A stretch of 64,000 bases of DNA from a virus (IMGVR_UViG_3300021399_000143:1-64000); one strand, 5' to 3'. Positions 397 to 63,441 are shown, counted from the stretch's first letter. A program made the numbers and translations. Notes: generated from the letters alone by a model not told the origin.

Positions 397-828
397 TCAA
401 TTATACGAGATTCCGAGCCTCAATCCAATCCACTTTCGGAACCACTCTGGCTCGTTCTCAATATGCTCGGCAATCTTCCTAATGCGTCTCTTGCCCAATC
501 TGGAATCAAGCATCGCAAGCAACCGAATGAAGTAGTTGTCGCTTGAAATAGATTCGTCAATGGAAAGCACATTGAGGAACTGATGGACGTAATTCATTGC
601 ATCGCCGTATATGTTGGAAACAATTCCCTGATTGCGAATCGTGTCAAGATCTTGTTCCCAGTTCTTCGGATTGCTCCTAAACCACGGTTCTCCATCCACT
701 ATAATAGAGAATACATGATCTTCACATCCATGACTGCCGACTCGCAGTACCTCGTACAAGAACTTGACTCTGCCCTTCAAGTCCTCGGGAAGTCTGCTTT
801 CCAATGTTTGCTTCGTCTTGCTCCACAT
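397..828 (-). CDS. Hypothetical protein (SF0329-like)
   Basis: 143 aa ORF; MWSKTK...GRVKF and LD.RLGKRR motifs recalled from that family. Confidence 0.5.
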   Translation of the reverse strand: MWSKTKQTLESRLPEDLKGRVKFLYEVLRVGSHGCEDHVFSIIVDGEPWFRSNPKNWEQDLDTIRNQGIVSNIYGDAMNYVHQFLNVLSIDESISSDNYFIRLLAMLDSRLGKRRIRKIAEHIENEPEWFRKWIGLRLGISYN

Positions 829-1312: not shown

Positions 1313-1627
1313 TTACCTGCAAAGCCCACAATATCCAAACGACAATGCGCTCTCAAGATGGGACGCGATTTCGTTGTATTCCTCAACAGTGATTTCATAT
1401 TTGTCCAAGACATCCTTCGTCGGCTCCTTCGCAGTGAAGGTCATGCAATGACAACCACCAGGCTCAGAATCGCATTCCTCGTCTTCTATGTAGTCCAGGA
1501 TGTCGTCTTGGTCTCCAAAATCGTCCTTGTCAGCAACCTTGCCCTTAATGGTGAATACCTTGGTGGCGCAAAGCCATTCACTCACGGTCAGGTGCAGAAG
1601 GTCGTTCTCTATTTCATATCCTCGCAT
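1313..1627 (-). CDS. Hypothetical acidic protein
   Basis: 104 aa ORF with AAAGGA RBS directly below a sigma70 promoter. Confidence 0.7.
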   Translation of the reverse strand: MRGYEIENDLLHLTVSEWLCATKVFTIKGKVADKDDFGDQDDILDYIEDEECDSEPGGCHCMTFTAKEPTKDVLDKYEITVEEYNEIASHLESALSFGYCGLCR

Positions 1628-10644: not shown

Positions 10645-11015
10645 TGGTGGAGGTGCGGAGCTGCTGCCGCTCCGGTCTTGCTCAGGCTTGAACATTGCTT
10701 GGTCATGTGCTTATGCCCATCTTGGTTTCATCTGGTGCAGATAGGGCAATAACTCCCAGATGATTTTATGGAAATGGCTGCGAATGGACGTTCCCATGCT
10801 CCATTGCAGTTGCGTTGGTGGATTAAGCCAGACAAGGTACTCTCGCACAACCTCCCTTGCCCAACTGCTGTCTTACAGATTGATGTTTCTCAATCAAGCA
10901 GCGATGGCATAGTCAGCCTCAGTTTGCTTTGGTCGGATTTTAAGGAAGCCATCTGACCAACTTCCGCACACATAACAATATCCTTGCATCTGCCAATCGA
11001 TACTATTTCACCCCC
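10645..11015 (-). ncRNA. ssrA: tmRNA (one-piece, 371 nt)
   Basis: 5' GGGGGTGAAATAGTATCGAT; 3' GCACCTCCACCA; G3:U70 pair; PK1 GGAAG/CTTCC plus TTGGTC/GACCAA; tag frame ...EADYAIAA-TGA. Confidence 0.9.
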
Positions 11016-44597: not shown

Positions 44598-44686
44598 ATG
44601 TCGTATTTACCATTGTTGCTCAAATTGAAAAGTAAATAGGATTTGCAGAGAAATGCGATAAGTATCAGAGTTTGGCAGCAGATATT

Positions 44687-44694
44687 TGTAAATA
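44687..44694 (+). promoter_or_regulatory. Late promoter motif TGTAAATA (second copy AGTAAATA at 44631-44638)
   Basis: Upstream of tail tube gene, divergent from 44604-44611. Confidence 0.65.
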
Positions 44695-44745: not shown

Positions 44746-45483
44746 ATGGCAAATTACAACTTGAGTCAAGCAATTGGAATGTTCAACGAGGATCAGGTGC
44801 GCACATAGCACATGTACGCAATCGAGTTCTTCAGTGGAATAAAGACGATTGACGACAGATTGATGAGAATGCAGGTATATGGCAACTCCTTCACGCTTCC
44901 AGAAAGGACGGTGAACTTTGAGGATTTGCAGTATAGGGCGTACAAGATTCCAATTCCCACGACGATTGACATGGCGCAGGATCACAGCGTCACAGTATAT
45001 GCTGACGTTCGTGGCGACTTGCGCAAGGCGATGCTTGACTGGCAGGCAGCTTGCATCAACCCAGCCATCACTCAGGGTTCGTTCTTCGAGTCCAACAGGC
45101 GTCCAACGAGGATTGGCAACGGCGACGACAACCAGCCATACATCAAGATTGACTTGCTTGCTCCTGACTTTCAGACGCCAGTTGAGACGACGATGATTTA
45201 CGGCACGAGGGTGACGAAGGTCGGTGGCTTGGAACTCTCCAACACTGCTGGTGGCATTTCCACCTTCTCCGTTGACTTCAAGAGCGTATATTGGGAGCAG
45301 CTTGCTGGCGCATCTGCACCATACAACTCCGACGCGAACAGGTACTTCAACCTCGGCGCACCCGGAAGCGAATGGAGTGGAACAGCAACAGTAGACACAG
45401 TTGCTGGTGGTTCAAGCCCAACTCCTGGTGGTTCTCCAGATTGGACGAATGCTCAGGGTGGTTCTGGTGGCTATGTAAGCTAA
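44746..45483 (+). CDS. Tail tube protein (T4 gp19-like), 245 aa with TAG=Gln
   Basis: TAG at codon 21 (44806); D.VR.Q..Y.IEF, TLP.R, DWQ, TRVTKVGGLELS, STFSVDF.SVYWE match the gp19 pattern. Confidence 0.85.
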
Positions 45484-45514
45484 TTCTGACATTGGTCTTG
45501 CATGAGACGACAAT

Positions 45515-45550
45515 GGGGGGATGGGGACAAGTCATGAACCCCATCTCCCC
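45515..45550 (+). terminator. Strong hairpin after tail tube gene (terminator or stabiliser; no U-tract)
   Basis: GGGGGGATGGGG...CCCCATCTCCCC. Confidence 0.5.
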
Positions 45551-45574
45551 AAAGCATTGATAGGGAGATGATTG

Positions 45575-46831
45575 ATGGGCGTAAGTCTATACACATTGAG
45601 AGACAGGGGAGCCGAGAAGGACTATCCAAGTTGGGTGGATGGTGCGCCAAACCTTCAGACATATCTTACTGCCATAAACAAGTCCCAGCCCATAATCCAA
45701 TGCCAATACGAAATTGTATGGAGTCGTTGGCCGAGGGCGAAGTTCTTCTCCAAGAACATCACGATCCCAGGAGTGTCTGTCAATACGCTTGAACTCAACC
45801 ACGCTGGATTCACAATCAAGATACCAACCCACGTCACCTACGAAACGACAGACATATCCTTCAACATCATAGCCGACAAAGAAGGTTTCCACTACTACGA
45901 TCTTCGGAACATGGTTCTTCAAACTGGCCATCCATTGGTGGCAGGAGACCCAAAATCCACCATAGGCAACCAATATGGAATCAGCACAGACGAGGACACA
46001 ATTGAAGTCAGATTGAGGAACAGACCCAGCGATGGAACACACCACCATTGGATATTCCACAACTTCAAGCCAACTGGCATAGGAGACGTTGAGTTGAGCC
46101 AGGACAGTGGCTCTTTCGTGGAGTTTGAGTTGAAGGGGACTTTCACCCACATCTCCTACGATTGCGGAAAGGTGTTGCCACCAGAAGAACCACCTGCTCC
46201 AGCTCCACAGGATGTTCCACCAGAAGAACAACCACCTCCAGAAGATGAAGAGGAAGAGAATGATGGGGAAATGCCACCAGACGAGCCAGAAGAACTAAAT
46301 GAGCCAGAGGACTTGAGACCACCTCCTGAACCAGAACCACCACCTGAACCAAAAACGACATTTACAGCAATAATGTCTGGTTCGGATAATCTTGAATCCG
46401 ACGATGATTCTGAATCATAGACGAGTTCATGTTCTGAAGTTAAAATGCAAGATCCAGTTTCTGAACAAGATGTCGAAGCAGCAAAGCAATGCAATAGTGA
46501 ACTTACAGAAGCAAGTGATGAACTGCAACAAGAATTGGATAGAATCAAATAGATGCCCGCTGATCCAAACTATGAACCGGAGCATGTATAGGATGAACTT
46601 TACAACAGTGTTCATACGCCAAACGCAAACCAGCAAGATGTTCCTGAAGGAAGCAGTGAAGAATATAAAGGGGATAAAGTAACGGCATCGTTCGATACTG
46701 ATGTCACTATAAAGTCTCCAGAGTAGAAGGCTGCATATGATGCCGCAGTCGCCAAATACAACCAAAAGACACAAGCATCAATGAACAAGTACAAAAATGC
46801 CAGACAATAGAACCAGCAAAGTGGGAAATAA
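45575..46831 (+). CDS. Second tail-tube-fold protein with Pro/acidic C-terminal extension, 418 aa with TAG=Gln
   Basis: KNITIPGVS...TYETTDISF..IAD...F.PTGIGDVELS..SGSFVEF; five TAGs (46418, 46550, 46589, 46724, 46808), then TAA. Confidence 0.75.
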
Positions 46832-46843
46832 CGGAGCATTGCC

Positions 46844-47155
46844 ATGAACAAAGACGAAGAAAGAAAAAGCGACATCAAGAGGATGAAACTTCTTGCCAAG
46901 GCTATACGTTTCAACCATGAAAAGACTGGGAAACTCAATGTCATGGTCGATCCAGACTACGAGATTGAGAACTACCAAACTGGCATGACCCAACTCACCC
47001 TTCCCCATAGATTTGGCATGTACAAGACCCCAACCAAGGATGTTCCAAAGACAACTGAGATTGAACTTGAAGATCCATAGGACAACTTCATTGATTCGAC
47101 ATCCTCAAGGTTGGCAAAGAACCCCAACCACAAGGTCAGGGGCATATTCGGTTGA
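46844..47155 (+). CDS. Hypothetical protein, 103 aa with TAG=Gln
   Basis: TAG 47078 read-through to TGA 47153. Confidence 0.55.
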
Positions 47156-47180
47156 TTCTGATTCCAGATTTTCGTATAAT
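47152..47180 (+). promoter_or_regulatory. sigma70-type promoter for the late sigma factor gene
   Basis: TTGATT-17-TATAAT. Confidence 0.65.
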
Positions 47181-47269
47181 TAAGGCATAGGCGTGTAAAG
47201 GGCGTATTTACCATAACTTCAGCCAAAGGACATGGTGAAACTCCCAATAGCACAAAGGAAACATAAACC

Positions 47270-47920
47270 ATGCCAAGAAGGAAAAGCGAATCACTGGAGG
47301 AATTCCAGAAGAAGAACCTGGAGAAATCCAGATTGAGACAAAAATAGAGAGCAGAGTAGGAGAAGCTCCATCCACGCCCCAAGCGCAAGCCATTCGTAAA
47401 CAACTCTGACTTGTTGAACGAATTGAAGAAGTGGCGGGATTCCAGCAAAGACCCCGATAAGAGACAGCCAAGCGAGTATCTTGGGAAGATGATATTGGAC
47501 ATCGCCACGCATTACATGGGACACCCAGACTACGTGCGATACTCCAAGGAAATCAAGGAGGACATCATAGGGCAGTCTTGCATCAGATGCATCAACGCAT
47601 TGCCAAGATACAACTTCAGCTTCACAAATCCATTTGCGTACTTCACAACAATCTGTTGGTCGTGCGCAATGACATACTTGAAGGACTACTACAAGGACTT
47701 GAACTTCAAGCGACAATTGGTGAAGGAGAACTTGGAACGTGCGATAGATGAACTTCCATCAATAAACATAGACAAGTCCTACATGAACTTCCTGAAGACG
47801 ATGATTGGCTCAGAGCAAATCACGGAGGCGGACGCCAAGTTCCTCAAGAGGCAGAAAGATTCAATCATCTCTGAGATAAGAAGCGAGAAAGCCAACAAGG
47901 ATAGAGACTACGATGTCTGA
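47270..47920 (+). CDS. Late-transcription sigma factor (T4 gp55-like), 216 aa with TAG=Gln
   Basis: FVNNSDLL..L..W, YLGKMIL.IA, Y...IKEDII, NPFAYFTTIC; TAGs at codons 26 and 30 precede the conserved core. Confidence 0.9.
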
Positions 47921-48653
47921 ACAGATAAACAAGGATAGACTCAACCAACTCCTTGGAATCCAAGAGGGTCAGAGTTTCGAGGACTACATGAACGATGGGA
48001 CATCCACAGACGAAACCCAATCGGTCATAGACCAAACTGCGAAACTCATAGAGGAAACCAAGGAGAAGGTGGATGAGATAGAGGGTCAGTTCCAGCACAA
48101 CATCCAAGTCATAGACGACGCAAAGAACCAGATTCAGACGACGATGAAGGATGGAGATGGCTCTGCAAGCGTTCGCATAGACAACATGGTGAACGTGGAA
48201 AGCGCGTTCAAGTCCATTGAGGACTTGGTGGACACCACGAAGCAAATGATTGGAACTGTCTATTCAATCATCTCAAGTTGCGATGTGTTGGATTCTGAAA
48301 CTGTCTCAGCTGCTGCTTCCCTAATAACATCAACCAAGCAACTAATCGCTGAATACCTTGGGTTGTACAAGCAAAGGGTCAAGTTCTTCGACAACGTGAA
48401 GATGGAGACCTTGAAGCAACAACATAGGTTGGAGTTGATGGAGAGGAAATACCAATTGGACGAGGAAAAATGGAACAGGCAGAATACCAAGCCAACAGAG
48501 GCAGAGGACATCACTGGCAAGGGTGGTGAAGTTCCACCTGGGATGGTTGAGGCTGGTTCAATTGACATGCTCAAGCTCATTCAAGAGATGGATGACGAGG
48601 ATGATGATACAGAAGAAGAGAACGATGGAGAATCCAATTGTTCTGACGATTGA
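47913..48653 (+). CDS. Helical acidic hypothetical protein (small-terminase-like helices possible)
   Basis: 246 aa ORF overlapping the gp55 stop. Confidence 0.55.
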   Translation: MSEQINKDRLNQLLGIQEGQSFEDYMNDGTSTDETQSVIDQTAKLIEETKEKVDEIEGQFQHNIQVIDDAKNQIQTTMKDGDGSASVRIDNMVNVESAFKSIEDLVDTTKQMIGTVYSIISSCDVLDSETVSAAASLITSTKQLIAEYLGLYKQRVKFFDNVKMETLKQQHRLELMERKYQLDEEKWNRQNTKPTEAEDITGKGGEVPPGMVEAGSIDMLKLIQEMDDEDDDTEEENDGESNCSDD

Positions 48654-59071: not shown

Positions 59072-61150
59072 ATGAGACTTGAAGAACTATATGCCAAGTT
59101 TGATACGATTGTTGGTGCTGGTGGGTTCAACGTAACCCCAGTTGAGCATTTCGTGTTTGACTTGACCGACGAGAACTCCCAGAACTCGTTGAAAGCAGCA
59201 TTTCCTGGGATTGAGTCTCTGCTCATGCCTGAATCAGGAAAGTACCTCGTGGCATCCACAATCGTTGAGAAGCCAGAGATTCTTGTCCTCATGTTCCCAT
59301 CTCAAGCGGACGGAAGCTTGGGTCTTTGCGCGTTCAACACTGCAACCAAGAAGGGAAAGAGGCTTGACAACACCCTGCAAGAGGACGAAGAGCAGAAGAC
59401 CACGATAGACAATTTTGACAAAGACTTCGCAAACATGGAAGATATTGCCCGGAAGTTCAATGAATTCGCATTCATGTCCGATGGTGAGAACCCCACTGAA
59501 GTCAAAGACATTGGTTCATTTGAAGTTTCAACCGATGAACCTGTGGAAATAACAAACACAAATACAGACGACAACGAGGAAACTAAAATGGCATTCAAAC
59601 CAATTAATGAAGAGGATGAACTCAAGGAGACCAAGTGGGTTGAGATTCCAAATACCAACGCACATGGTGTCACTGTGACAGAGGATGGAGAGGAACAGGC
59701 AGATCCATTTGCCGATGGCTCTCTTGACGCAACCGCGGATCAAACAGCAGACGCTGGAAACGCTGACGCTGGAAACGCTGACGCAACAGGTGGCGAGACG
59801 CAACCAGCAGAAGGAGACGCAACAACTGCTGATGCTTCTGGTGGTGACGCAACTGCTAATGCAGGTGGTGAGCAAGCGGGTGACGCAACCGCAGACGCCA
59901 ATGCTGGTGATGCAACAGCTGAAGCCCCCGCTGAAGGAGATGGTGCGGCAACCATTGACGATCCAAAGGCAAAGATGCGCGAACTTCTCGCATATTACAC
60001 CAACTACATGAATGAATTGGTTCAGGATCCAAACACCTCCACTGAGCTTATTTCTGCAACGCAGGACATGATTGATTCTCTCATCAAGAACATGGAAAGC
60101 GCCGATGGAATTGAGGAAGTCAAGGCTGACCAAGAGGAAGCCGCGAAAGAGGAAGTGAGTGCTGAAGAAGCCCCCTCTGAAGGTGGGAATGAAGGTGGTG
60201 AATCTGCTCCTACAGAGGGAGAAGGTGAATCTGCTCCATCTGAAGGCGAACAAGTTTCTGAGGGATCTGAATGTTCCGCAGAATGTGGCTCAGATGGTGC
60301 TTCTGTTGGCTCTGACGATGGTTCTCTTGTGAAAGAGGAGGAAGACAAGAAGGACGGTGACGATGACGCAGCAAGCGATGCAAAGATTGATGCCGAAATC
60401 GACGACCTCCACAAGGATGATATTACTGACATTGAGCCAATCACAGGAGACGACATTCTCACCCCAGGTGACATTCGCAACTCCGCAGTGAATGACGTTG
60501 ATTTGAGCGACGTTCCCCCAACATCCGACGAGGAGCTTGCAGCAACAACGCCAGACGAGACGGCTCAGCCTACAAGTGACGTTCTTGACGACACCGCACT
60601 TCCTACCCCAGATGAGGAAGTTGATTTGCTCGGCACAGACGACCTTGACGAATATGCAATTGGAGCCGATGGACTTCCAGTTGACAAGTACGAAGGGGAC
60701 ATTGACACATTGACGGCCACGCCAGTATCCAAGAAAATCAATTGGTCAAGCGACTATGCGACAAATGGAATGGCTACGTCCGACGACAACTCAGTGGTTG
60801 TTCCAGAGGTTCTGAAGGAACTTGAGGACTACTACAAGAAGGTTGCCGACGAAGTGAGCAAGGTTCCTGGCAAGGAGGACGTTGCGATGAAGTTGCAGAA
60901 GATTCAGATTCTCTCTCAGACCATCGCAAACGAGTGGAACGGCATCGTTTCTCAGATCTCCGACACTTGCGCCAATTCCTACGATCTCTCCAACATGTGC
61001 GATCTTGAGAAGGACGAACTTGCCTCTCAGGACGCAATGAACATGGTTGGGGCAGACGTGATGGCTGACGATGAAGCTGCTGAAGAGGATGACCTCAAGA
61101 TCAACAACGACATCGCATCCTTCGTGGAATCCTTCAAGCACCTCTACTGA
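59072..61150 (+). CDS. Highly acidic low-complexity late protein (possible scaffold/core)
   Basis: 692 aa; Ala/Gly/Asp/Glu repeats (ADAGN repeat); late motif upstream. Confidence 0.75.
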   Translation: MRLEELYAKFDTIVGAGGFNVTPVEHFVFDLTDENSQNSLKAAFPGIESLLMPESGKYLVASTIVEKPEILVLMFPSQADGSLGLCAFNTATKKGKRLDNTLQEDEEQKTTIDNFDKDFANMEDIARKFNEFAFMSDGENPTEVKDIGSFEVSTDEPVEITNTNTDDNEETKMAFKPINEEDELKETKWVEIPNTNAHGVTVTEDGEEQADPFADGSLDATADQTADAGNADAGNADATGGETQPAEGDATTADASGGDATANAGGEQAGDATADANAGDATAEAPAEGDGAATIDDPKAKMRELLAYYTNYMNELVQDPNTSTELISATQDMIDSLIKNMESADGIEEVKADQEEAAKEEVSAEEAPSEGGNEGGESAPTEGEGESAPSEGEQVSEGSECSAECGSDGASVGSDDGSLVKEEEDKKDGDDDAASDAKIDAEIDDLHKDDITDIEPITGDDILTPGDIRNSAVNDVDLSDVPPTSDEELAATTPDETAQPTSDVLDDTALPTPDEEVDLLGTDDLDEYAIGADGLPVDKYEGDIDTLTATPVSKKINWSSDYATNGMATSDDNSVVVPEVLKELEDYYKKVADEVSKVPGKEDVAMKLQKIQILSQTIANEWNGIVSQISDTCANSYDLSNMCDLEKDELASQDAMNMVGADVMADDEAAEEDDLKINNDIASFVESFKHLY

Positions 61151-61233: not shown

Positions 61234-61458
61234 TCACTTCTGAGGCGCAACTACCCTATACCAAAGAAGCGAATTGGTCTTGCAGTGGAAATCCACACCA
61301 ACCTTTTGGGCAATTTCCGCAGTCTTTTCGGTAAGCCTTGTGGTGGTTACGCGATCAACTCCAGCTATTACGCACACCAAGGCAAGCGCAACCGTAAGCA
61401 CGATGTTCATGCGCAAGTTGTCCTTCTTCAGTTTCTTGATTTCGTCTTCAATGTTCAT
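61234..61458 (-). CDS. Small membrane protein
   Basis: Single TM segment; GAAGGAG RBS. Confidence 0.6.
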   Translation of the reverse strand: MNIEDEIKKLKKDNLRMNIVLTVALALVCVIAGVDRVTTTRLTEKTAEIAQKVGVDFHCKTNSLLWYRVVAPQK

Positions 61459-63373
61459 TGTTTGTTTCTCCTTCGTCCTAATCCCGCACTATGCGTGAAA
61501 TGTTATCCTGCTTCTGAACCACCATCATCTGGGTCTCTGGCATGTCCTTGAACATGGTCTCGACCTCTCCACGGTGGGAGATGATGGAGATGTTCGTGTT
61601 CTCCTTCTGAGAAAGTTGAAGCAATATGCCCAGCAACTTCTGAATCGACACACTGTCCAACGCCCTGTCAACAACCTCGTCTATAATCATTATGTTCATG
61701 CAGACGTTGAACCTGGAGATGAGGAACTTTCTAAACGCCAATTGGGACGATATGATGAGCTTCATCTGCTCTCCAAGCGAAAGGTTGGGGAAATCCAACT
61801 CTCCACCACTGGACTGAATCTCGTAGTCGTTCATGTCGCTTGTGAGATTGCAGGTGAAATTGACGCAAAGCTCCGAAAGATTGGCGTTTATCATTGCGTT
61901 GATTGAGGATACAACCCGTGATATGATGTTCTTCTTGATTGCGTCAGGTGAGACTATCTCAGAACCAACCTTGAGCAAGCAAAGGTGCATTGCCTCGTCC
62001 TTAAGTTGCTTCTCCACTTCCTCAATGTCCCTCAACGTCTGCTTATACACGTCATATGAAGGTATCTTGTCCTCGTTCTCCATTGAATCCATCAAGTCAG
62101 CAACCTTGCGCTCCAAGTCCTTTATGGACTTCAACAATTGGGACTTCTGGAACTGAAGGTTGCGTTCCTCAACTTGCGTCTCAGAAAGCTCGCCAATCTT
62201 CGCCAATTCCTCTGACTTGAGCTTGTCGTCATAGACCTTCACCTTGGCTAGTTGCTGACTACAATTCGCAATCTTCTCGTTCTCTTGGTCTATTTGGGAG
62301 TTCAACTTCTCTATCTCGTCCCTATACACATCCAACGAATAGAACTTGTTGACAACTTGCTTGCAATCGTCGCAAATCATTCCGAGGACTTCCTTGTGCT
62401 TGTTCAATTCCCTCTGATGGTGCGAGATTGTCGTGTTGTAGTTGTTTATCTCAATCTTCGCATTGGTCATCACGTCATTGCACTTGGAAATGACTTCATC
62501 AAGCTTCATCTTGTTCTCGCGTATCTTCGCCAACGCCTCCTCTATGACCTTCCTCTGCTCCTCGATCCCCTTGAACTTTGGACCGAAGCCTTGCACCTTC
62601 TCTTCAAGAACGGACTTCTCCTTGTTCGTCTCTGCAATCTGGTCGTTGACGCTGGCCTTGTACCTCTCAATGCTTTCCTCGCAAACCTCCTTGGTCTTGG
62701 CATACTTCATCTGATTCACCTTGAGGTTCTGAAGCACCATGTTCTTGGACTTCATGTCGTCGCCCATCATCTTGTACATCTTGGAATAGATGGAAGTGTC
62801 GAACAAAGTCTCCACGAAATCCCTCTTCTGCCCGGCATTCAACTTGAAGAAGTTGTACTTGTCGTCAACAGAAAGCATGACCAGGCGCTGATACATCTCG
62901 AAGTTCATGAACAGAACATTGTCCTCAATGTACTTCTGTGTATTCGCTGACGAAGACTTGGATATGTCCTTCCAATCACCATCTTTCAAGATAAGCAATT
63001 GAAGCACAACTGTAGAAGAACCCTTCTGAATCCCACGAATTATCTTCCAATGCTTCACGTCAGTATTTGATATGATTGAATCAACCTCAACGGACACAAA
63101 CATCTTCCAATTGCCCCTCAATTCGTCCGCATACTTGTTCTTCAAGTTGGAATTGTGTATCTTGCCATACAACTGACCAAAGAGCGAATACATGAGGGCA
63201 TGAGACAAAGCTGACTTTCCTGAGCCATTTGAGGTGTTGCCCAAAGTGGTCTCAGTGTCCTTGTTCTTACCCTTGATTAGCACAAGCCTGTTCGTATTGT
63301 CAAAATCCCATTCCTCATCCTGAAACGACAGGAAGTTGTGTATGTCAATCTTCTTTACCTTTACTCTGACCAT
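61448..63373 (-). CDS. Recombination endonuclease ATPase subunit (T4 gp46/SbcC/Rad50-like)
   Basis: Walker A NGSGKS, CxxC hook, LSLGE signature, IIDE, ISH; terminal TAG 61478 then backup TGA 61448. Confidence 0.9.
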
Positions 63374-63409: not shown

Positions 63410-63441
63410 ATTATACCATTATTGACATATAATTGTAAATA
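63410..63441. promoter_or_regulatory. Overlapping divergent promoters: sigma70 TTTACA-18-TATAAT (-) and late TGTAAATA (+)
   Basis: Between gp46 and the 63450 gene. Confidence 0.6.

Follow-up and report, generated by a model that had tools for sequence, protein, structure and literature searches.

The stretch of viral DNA analyzed here (the window) comprises 64,000 nucleotides and is part of a linear record of 75.7 kb from a jumbo phage, with a completeness rated at 18%. It contains, between a tail-tube operon and a gene for a 246-aa protein, a gene that is predicted to encode a late sigma factor resembling gp55 of phage T4 and is denoted gp55 below. The gene extends from ATG 47270 to the TGA at 47918-47920, and its full-length product begins MPRRK. 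The features of the locus are as follows:

44632..44694, plus strand: two late boxes (GTAAATA) ahead of a TAG-bearing tail-tube operon
44746-47155, plus strand: TAG-bearing tail-tube operon, ending 114 nt before gp55 on the same strand
47152..47157, plus strand: -35-like hexamer TTGATT, overlapping the TGA stop of the upstream gene
47174..47182, plus strand: -10 box GTATAATTA, of the early-type promoter class GTATAATTG
47205..47215, minus strand: inverted late box TATGGTAAATA in the gp55 leader, facing the gp55 promoter
47254..47258, plus strand: Shine-Dalgarno-like AAGGA, 11 nt ahead of the gp55 ATG
47270..47920, plus strand: predicted gp55-type late sigma factor gene, 216 codons with TAG as Gln
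47270..47392, plus strand: N-terminal extension of gp55 (codons 1-41), about 31 residues of which lack a counterpart in T4 gp55; helix predicted at 9-33
47345..47347, plus strand: in-frame TAG, gp55 codon 26; TAG in 7 of the 12 relatives and CAG or CAA in the remaining 5
47357..47359, plus strand: in-frame TAG, gp55 codon 30; TAG in 2 of 12 relatives, CAG in 9, TTG in 1
47411..47416, plus strand: TTG TTG, gp55 codons 48-49, the first possible starts past the TAGs; within predicted helix H1
47913..48653, plus strand: downstream gene for a 246-aa protein with an acidic C-terminus, overlapping the gp55 stop (ATGTCTGA); TAG-free in every relative

An earlier note, made from the sequence alone, had described ATG 47270 followed by TAG at codons 26 and 30, and both TAGs are present exactly as claimed. 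It had also stated that no ATG, GTG or TTG occurs between the second TAG and the FVNN motif (codons 42-45; 47393-47404). Reading codons 31-41 (GAG AAG CTC CAT CCA CGC CCC AAG CGC AAG CCA) confirmed this, and revealed no near-cognate CTG or ATH within these codons. The position that the note gave for the following TTG codons, 47408/47411, was wrong: the in-frame TTGs start at 47411 and 47414, and 47408 is GAC. In the Shine-Dalgarno region of gp55, GGAAAC is kept in most relatives and degraded in L005 and L006; AAGGA is found at the same spacing ahead of ATG 47913, the start of the downstream gene.

Identification of the gene product

The gp55 product matched the PHROGs family phrog_234, 'late sigma transcription factor', with an E-value of 7.7e-22, and a profile of six relatives matched the T4 gp55 chain 7d7c_F with an E-value of 7.6e-10 (query residues 36-171 against gp55 residues 5-144). 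Sequence identity to T4 gp55 amounts to ~17-30%. A total of 492 phage records match the protein and, among the matches listed, most are annotated as late sigma factor. Pfam yielded a weak, sub-threshold match to Sigma70_r2 and none to r4.

The AF2 model of gp55 (pLDDT 84.8) displays helices at residues 45-56, 69-82, 93-109, 121-161 and 167-179. Its predicted fold comprises sigma region 2-like helices H1-H4 together with a long H4-H5 helix-loop-helix, and the Foldseek search returned 7d7c_F as the best match (probability 1.00, TM 0.67), with sigma region-2 structures ranking next. At the C-terminus, the block ITExDAKFLKRQKDSII is conserved. As in T4 gp55 (PDB 7d7c; PMC7892883, PMC2988020), the predicted protein combines a sigma region-2-like fold and a long helix-loop-helix with the lack of region 4. 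The late sigma identity proposed in the earlier note is thus borne out by the PHROG, profile and fold matches, and on this evidence 47270-47920 encodes a late sigma factor of the T4 gp55 type. The family of gp45, which together with gp33 is a partner of gp55 in T4, was sought with PF02916; there was no match in G000-G003, an uninformative result because the control genomes likewise gave none.

The phage protein differs from T4 gp55 by its conserved 31-residue helical N-terminal extension and by its natural sense TAGs. In the model, both TAGs lie inside the confidently predicted N-terminal helix (residues 9-33) that is missing from T4 gp55.

Genetic code of the phage

Treating TAG as a sense codon increased the coding density from 0.887 to 0.934 and the mean ORF length from 208 to 285 aa. 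The codon-usage-guided gene set contains 84 genes, all of which end with TGA or TAA, and 77 in-frame TAGs distributed over 24 of them, corresponding to 9.5% of the Gln-type codons. Within the TAG-bearing genes, TAG accounts for 15.5% of the Gln codons; in gp55 it accounts for two of nine. Reassignment of TGA to Trp was considered and rejected: it lengthened greedy ORFs too, but all gene interruptions examined were TAG, and the codon-usage model resolved the conflicts.

The residue most often found opposite TAG in alignments of 37 gene families was Gln (79 of 347, 23%). In the gp55 alignment, TAG interchanges with CAA or CAG at columns 24, 26 and 30, demonstrating that TAG means Gln at these positions. 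Judged by these substitutions, the phage reads TAG as Gln (genetic code 15). In PHROGs, most of the large TAG-bearing proteins had no match, nor did 10 small neighbours, and the release-factor family PF00472 was not found in five related records, the complete relatives included.

The TAG codons in related late sigma factors

We compared 12 related gp55 sequences, 11 of them distinct, that are 73-94% identical. The complete relatives G001-G003 are genomes of 414-434 kb with direct terminal repeats; the other gp55 relatives are located on fragments from what look like rumen metagenomes. All 12 sequences start with the same MPRRKSESLEEFQKKNLEKS extension. Serine codons in the extension switch between TCA and AGT, which indicates that the frame is translated and under selection at the protein level.

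Every one of the 12 sequences carries at least one TAG within codons 24-30, and the total number of TAGs ranges from 1 to 3 among close relatives. TAG occupies column 24 in 7 of 12 sequences, column 26 in 7 of 12 and column 30 in 2 of 12; L005, L081 and L082, which lost the TAGs at 24 and 26, have one at column 25. More TAGs occur at columns 33, 46, 102, 128 and 150. The GC-rich relative P0002 (L078/L079), which uses the standard code, shares both the extension and the three-gene synteny and has no TAG. This makes the extension ancestral and places the origin of the TAGs within the recoded clade. On the conservation of 5' TAGs in code-11 and code-15 relatives, which the earlier note had raised, the alignment shows that all 12 recoded sequences have TAG in codons 24-30 and that the standard-code sequence has none.

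The standard-code locus (L078 1019-1666 and neighbours) shows the gene order gp55, 244-aa gene, 210-aa gene, with TAG used as a stop in a neighbouring gene, and offers an outgroup for dating the recoding. Two other, more distant TAG-recoded lineages are represented by L084 (1352-1942; GC 47%), whose gp55 has 3 TAGs, and by L085 (1766-2407; GC 27%), whose gp55 has 7 and whose neighbouring genes are recoded too. In both, the TAGs are found mostly in the first third of the gene.

Because the TAGs lie 5' of all homology to T4 gp55 and no later start is conserved, a ribosome that reads TAG as stop would yield only a 25-residue peptide. Synthesis of gp55 thus very probably needs amber suppression, a dependency for which both the reading frame and the relatives offer good support. 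An independent role of the 25-residue N-terminal peptide as an early product was considered as well and found unlikely, the extension being fused to the core in the standard-code relative.

Initiation at TTG 47411/47414 or at the ATG of codon 74, or re-initiation after termination, could bypass the TAGs and produce an active truncated sigma factor without suppression. Gene callers set to code 11 yield such products (P0001, 165 aa; P0006), and T4 gp55 does without the extension, its own N-terminal segment being disordered (PMC7892883). The clade of L005 and L081 moreover has a start codon three bases past the TAG: TTG in L005 (3001-3639), which contains a single TAG at codon 25 and no core TAG, and ATG in L081 (1423-2064). 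In L005 the lock may accordingly leak, since termination followed by re-initiation could yield a truncated sigma factor; L081, on the other hand, retains a second TAG in the core, at column 102. The TTGs of the window are not conserved (CTT CTG in L004, CTG CTT in L005) and have no Shine-Dalgarno-like box ahead of them, and initiation at TTG 47411 would remove part of helix H1, which spans residues 45-56. The extension that such a product would lack is, in addition, strongly conserved at the protein level, also in the standard-code relative. We therefore regard a bypass as very improbable, and initiation at the TTGs, which the earlier note had named as a possible refutation, is not favoured.

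Promoter and leader of gp55

The hexamer TTGATT and the sequence TATAAT (47175-47180), separated by a 17-nt spacer, together match 10 of 12 consensus positions. The -10 core GTATAATT is invariant across all relatives, but the -35 region is variable: TTGATT occurs in the window and its closest relatives only, with no conservation in L001, L002, L003 or L005. A promoter scan of the region found 2 sites against 2.5 expected, and the gp55 site alone is not significant; it carries weight because of its conservation and its membership of a recurring promoter class. Of the host-type promoter TTGATT-17-TATAAT described in the earlier note, the -10 element thus stands firm and the -35 element does not extend beyond the closest relatives. 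A sigma70-type promoter of its own is a further property that the gene shares with T4 gene 55. No forward late box was found ahead of gp55, which has its own early-type -10 instead.

The inverted late box of the leader (ttATGGTAAATAcgcc) is well formed and located 24 nt downstream of the gp55 -10, and its core TATTTAC is kept in every relative. Judging from its position and orientation, it could let newly made sigma factor interfere with its own early promoter, or it could shield gp55 from late read-through. An antisense RNA starting from this box would be ~80 nt long, given a terminator-like hairpin at 47141-47122 of the minus strand.

We found no plus-strand terminator between the tail-tube operon and gp55. 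In consequence, late transcripts of the operon could read through into gp55, and part of gp55 expression may be late.

Early-type and late-type promoters on the fragment

The early class of promoters is characterized by the sigma70-like -10 box GTATAATTG and a variable -35. Boxes of this class precede the TAG-free exonuclease (42850) and helicase (57680) genes, and also a gp46-like gene (61448) and gp55. The late class is defined by AATKGTAAATA, of which 10 exact copies are present against 0.05 expected (18 against 2.95 for the GTAAATA core). According to the in silico analysis, nearly all late boxes are intergenic and directed into TAG-bearing structural operons. They resemble the T4 late promoter in consisting of a single extended -10-like box without a -35, AATKGTAAATA here compared with TATAAATA in T4. 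The earlier note had proposed downstream TAGs as a second lock; the structural operons behind the late boxes are TAG-rich and would again need the suppressor tRNA.

The distribution of TAG follows the two classes. TAG is absent from the Dda-like helicase, the exonuclease, a methyltransferase and the gene at 59072; three of these have orthologues, likewise without TAG in all relatives. Genes of the early class have 0 TAGs across all relatives, the SbcC/gp46-like gene carrying only a terminal one, and the tail-tube and other large late or structural genes contain 1-9 TAGs per gene. Only gp55, on the 75.7 kb record, has internal TAGs behind an early-type box alone, if one disregards the terminal TAG of the gp46-like gene and a few probable artefacts of start sites or small ORFs; a gene at 72355-74349 has six TAGs but both box types upstream.

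The exception in the gp46/SbcC-like early gene (61448-63373, minus strand) is a TAG at codon 632 of 641, which is conserved in the four genomes compared. It is located nine codons before the TAA, and the short acidic tail that follows has neither the same sequence nor the same length in G000 and G002. A conserved terminal TAG followed by a divergent tail suggests that early translation probably treats TAG as a stop. By the same token, TAG may be the working stop of this gene and be read through once suppression begins.

Early and late elements also meet in composite sites. At 63427-63441, and again in L050 at ~545-575 (minus strand), a composite motif (G/A)TATAATTGTAAATA is found in which the early -10 and the late box AATTGTAAATA share five bases; judged by this overlap, one site could serve both promoter classes. 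At the divergent junctions 58952/58978, 63408/63435 and 74362/74399, the reverse complement of a late box supplies a TTTACC or TTTACA -35 hexamer.

Suppressor tRNA genes in complete relatives

No suppressor tRNA was found on the 75.7 kb fragment, on which tRNA-Arg was the only tRNA detected, and no tmRNA was detected in the window at 10645-11015 (ARAGORN in tmRNA mode; Rfam with gathering thresholds). The complete relatives contain 20-33 tRNAs and a tmRNA in an array. The tmRNAs of G002 and G003 lie within these tRNA arrays and encode the tags GNDYRMAA and GNDYSMAA. Each of the three complete relatives also contains a candidate for the suppressor:

G003, L050 612-688, minus strand: tRNA with CUA anticodon (ARAGORN)
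G001, L052 1369-1458, minus strand: tRNA with CUA anticodon (ARAGORN) and a long variable arm
G002, L053 ~1395-1500, minus strand: cloverleaf-like gene with a CUCUAAC loop, an encoded CCA and an odd 8-nt T-loop, missed by ARAGORN and Rfam

A BLAST search with the suppressor tRNA of G003 hit only its promoter region in G001 and G002, and the tRNAs there were located by position. In G001-G003 the CUA tRNA genes stand away from the main tRNA array. Each of them is found just 3' of a GTATAATTGAA box, which belongs to the promoter class of gp55, and in G001 and G003 directly after a terminator hairpin.

Since tRNA(CUA) and gp55 belong to the same promoter class, any delay between them may be short or absent. 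To judge from the shared promoter class, a delay would depend on tRNA accumulation, on tRNA processing and on competition with RF1. The earlier note had suggested that the mRNA can be made early and that sigma activity appears only after TAG is decoded. The early-type -10 and the need for suppression agree with this sequence of events; the time window between the two steps does not follow from them, as the tRNA shares the promoter class.

TAG codons in gp55 and its downstream neighbour

The downstream gene overlaps gp55 and encodes a conserved 246-aa protein for which no family was found in Pfam, PHROGs or the ESM Atlas; among the sequences compared, its ATG overlaps or directly adjoins the gp55 stop. 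From the gene overlap, translational coupling to gp55 would be expected, and the protein is a candidate for a partner in late transcription. The two genes differ markedly in their use of TAG: 20 of 98 Gln-type codons are TAG in gp55 (nine sequences), compared with 0 of 142 in the downstream gene (8 sequences). Parsimony places roughly 10-14 independent TAG gains in gp55 and none in its neighbour. If the neighbour purges TAG because it is translated while TAG still means stop, gp55 would be untranslatable from the same mRNA at that time. Such gene specificity inside one transcription unit is a stronger argument than the persistence of TAG.

To assess persistence, we simulated a neutral two-state model along the gp55 tree, with scaling to the divergence at four-fold sites. 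If the ancestor carried TAG at 24 and 26, one TAG or more survived in every tip with P = 0.25-0.8; with an equilibrium root, the figure was P = 0.03-0.29. Synonymous divergence is 0.40 in the 5' part of gp55 and 0.57 in the rest of the gene. The neutral simulation can thus account for TAG persistence, which alone is no proof of selection. Of 115 TAG columns in 37 families (up to six genomes), only four have TAG in at least three genomes, and gp55 columns 24 and 26 are among them. This comparison of column occupancy is confounded because most late proteins evolve fast and gp55 is 80% conserved; together with the neutral simulation, the confound led us to drop the high occupancy at 24 and 26 as evidence for selection.

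The TAGs could accordingly be passengers, i.e. Gln codons that drifted into a gene expressed at middle or late times, when suppression is already efficient, and that have no role in timing. The neutral simulation reproduces a TAG in every relative (P = 0.25-0.8), and two of nine is unremarkable against the 15.5% TAG among Gln codons of TAG-bearing genes. All neighbours of gp55 in L085 also carry TAG, and read-through from the late tail-tube operon is possible. These observations have to be set against the invariant early-type -10 that gp55 has of its own, without a forward late box, and against the overlapping, co-transcribed gene with 0 TAG in 142 Gln codons. Logically, moreover, the sigma factor must come before late transcription, and the TAG density per codon of gp55 is the highest of the 37 families compared. 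On balance, we consider passenger TAGs unlikely, if deserving of serious attention.

The contrast with the TAG-free overlapping gene would also fit a differential yield of two proteins from one mRNA. Each TAG multiplies the yield by the suppression efficiency, and the TAGs might thereby keep the sigma factor low relative to the co-transcribed downstream protein without any effect on timing. The mechanics of such a dosage attenuator are the same as those of a gate, and the T4 literature stresses the dosage of late-transcription factors (PMC2988020). A TAG number that varies from 1 to 3 among close relatives would, however, shift the dose several-fold, and we judge an attenuator to be rather improbable.

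Proposed mechanism and relation to known systems

We propose that the TAGs of gp55 act as a gate on the late programme. Host RNA polymerase would transcribe both tRNA(CUA) and the gp55 mRNA from sigma70-type -10 promoters of one class, and full-length sigma factor would be made only when the phage tRNA(CUA) outcompetes host RF1. The sigma factor would then bring host RNA polymerase to the late boxes (AATKGTAAATA) in front of the TAG-rich structural operons, and the late mRNAs, decoded with the help of the same tRNA(CUA), would yield the late proteins. Wired in this manner, the system would constitute a coherent feed-forward AND gate.

This gate, taken as a whole, is in our view the best explanation, with a likelihood slightly better than even. 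From the arrangement of promoters and codons we infer that the tRNA would be limiting early and that the TAGs would delay or throttle the sigma factor, to adaptive effect. An evolved master switch is plausible, its likelihood ranging from doubtful to about even depending on how strictly the term is defined. We are more hesitant, and lean against it, about the most specific version of the gate, in which selection maintains the 5' TAGs as a timer of translation, the code change sets off the late programme and, as feedback, the inverted late box lets the sigma factor shut off or insulate its own early promoter. The code-gated master switch envisaged in the earlier note therefore holds as far as the amber dependency of the late sigma factor, which follows from sequence logic; selection for this role does not follow, given a neutral P = 0.25-0.8.

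In T4, an amber mutation in gene 55 abolishes late transcription in non-suppressing hosts, and this mutant may be viewed as the laboratory version of the natural arrangement described here. The late genes of T4 stay untranscribed when gene 55 is not functional (PMC2988020).

A model in which recoding gates late and lysis genes post-transcriptionally has been published (Borges et al., 10.1101/2021.08.26.457843; also PMC7886860, PMC6784885). Like our phage, the published recoded phages use TAG as Gln mostly in structural operons, keep early DNA-metabolism genes TAG-free and encode a suppressor tRNA, and the logic proposed for them is the same, namely that late proteins are blocked until the code changes. 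There, the block acts on the late structural and lysis proteins; here, the code switch would lie upstream of the transcriptional switch, at the sigma factor. The word 'sigma' is absent from the text of Borges et al. (10.1101/2021.08.26.457843), and our literature search, which did not extend to subscription journals, found no paper that joins gp55 or a sigma factor with recoding in this arrangement. The earlier note, which knew of no description of the arrangement, agrees with this outcome, even though the general idea of a recoding gate is published.

A parallel from cellular development is provided by bldA, the tRNA-Leu(UAA) of Streptomyces, and adpA (PMC2000904, PMC10732093). In both systems a codon of a master regulator is read by one dedicated tRNA, and in Streptomyces development depends on that tRNA. 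The bldA-adpA pair involves a rare sense codon in a cellular programme, whereas the phage would use a reassigned stop codon in a virus; the timing of the bldA tRNA has been studied experimentally.

Recoding as a timer is a widely cited idea that has gone without a direct test, since dozens of structural genes are subject to the block. Should the late sigma factor need the suppressor, the hypothesis could be narrowed to a single small gene together with one tRNA and one promoter motif. If the gate is true, a change of the genetic code would be wired upstream of a transcriptional cascade, as a viral counterpart of bldA-adpA and a natural form of the T4 gene-55 amber.
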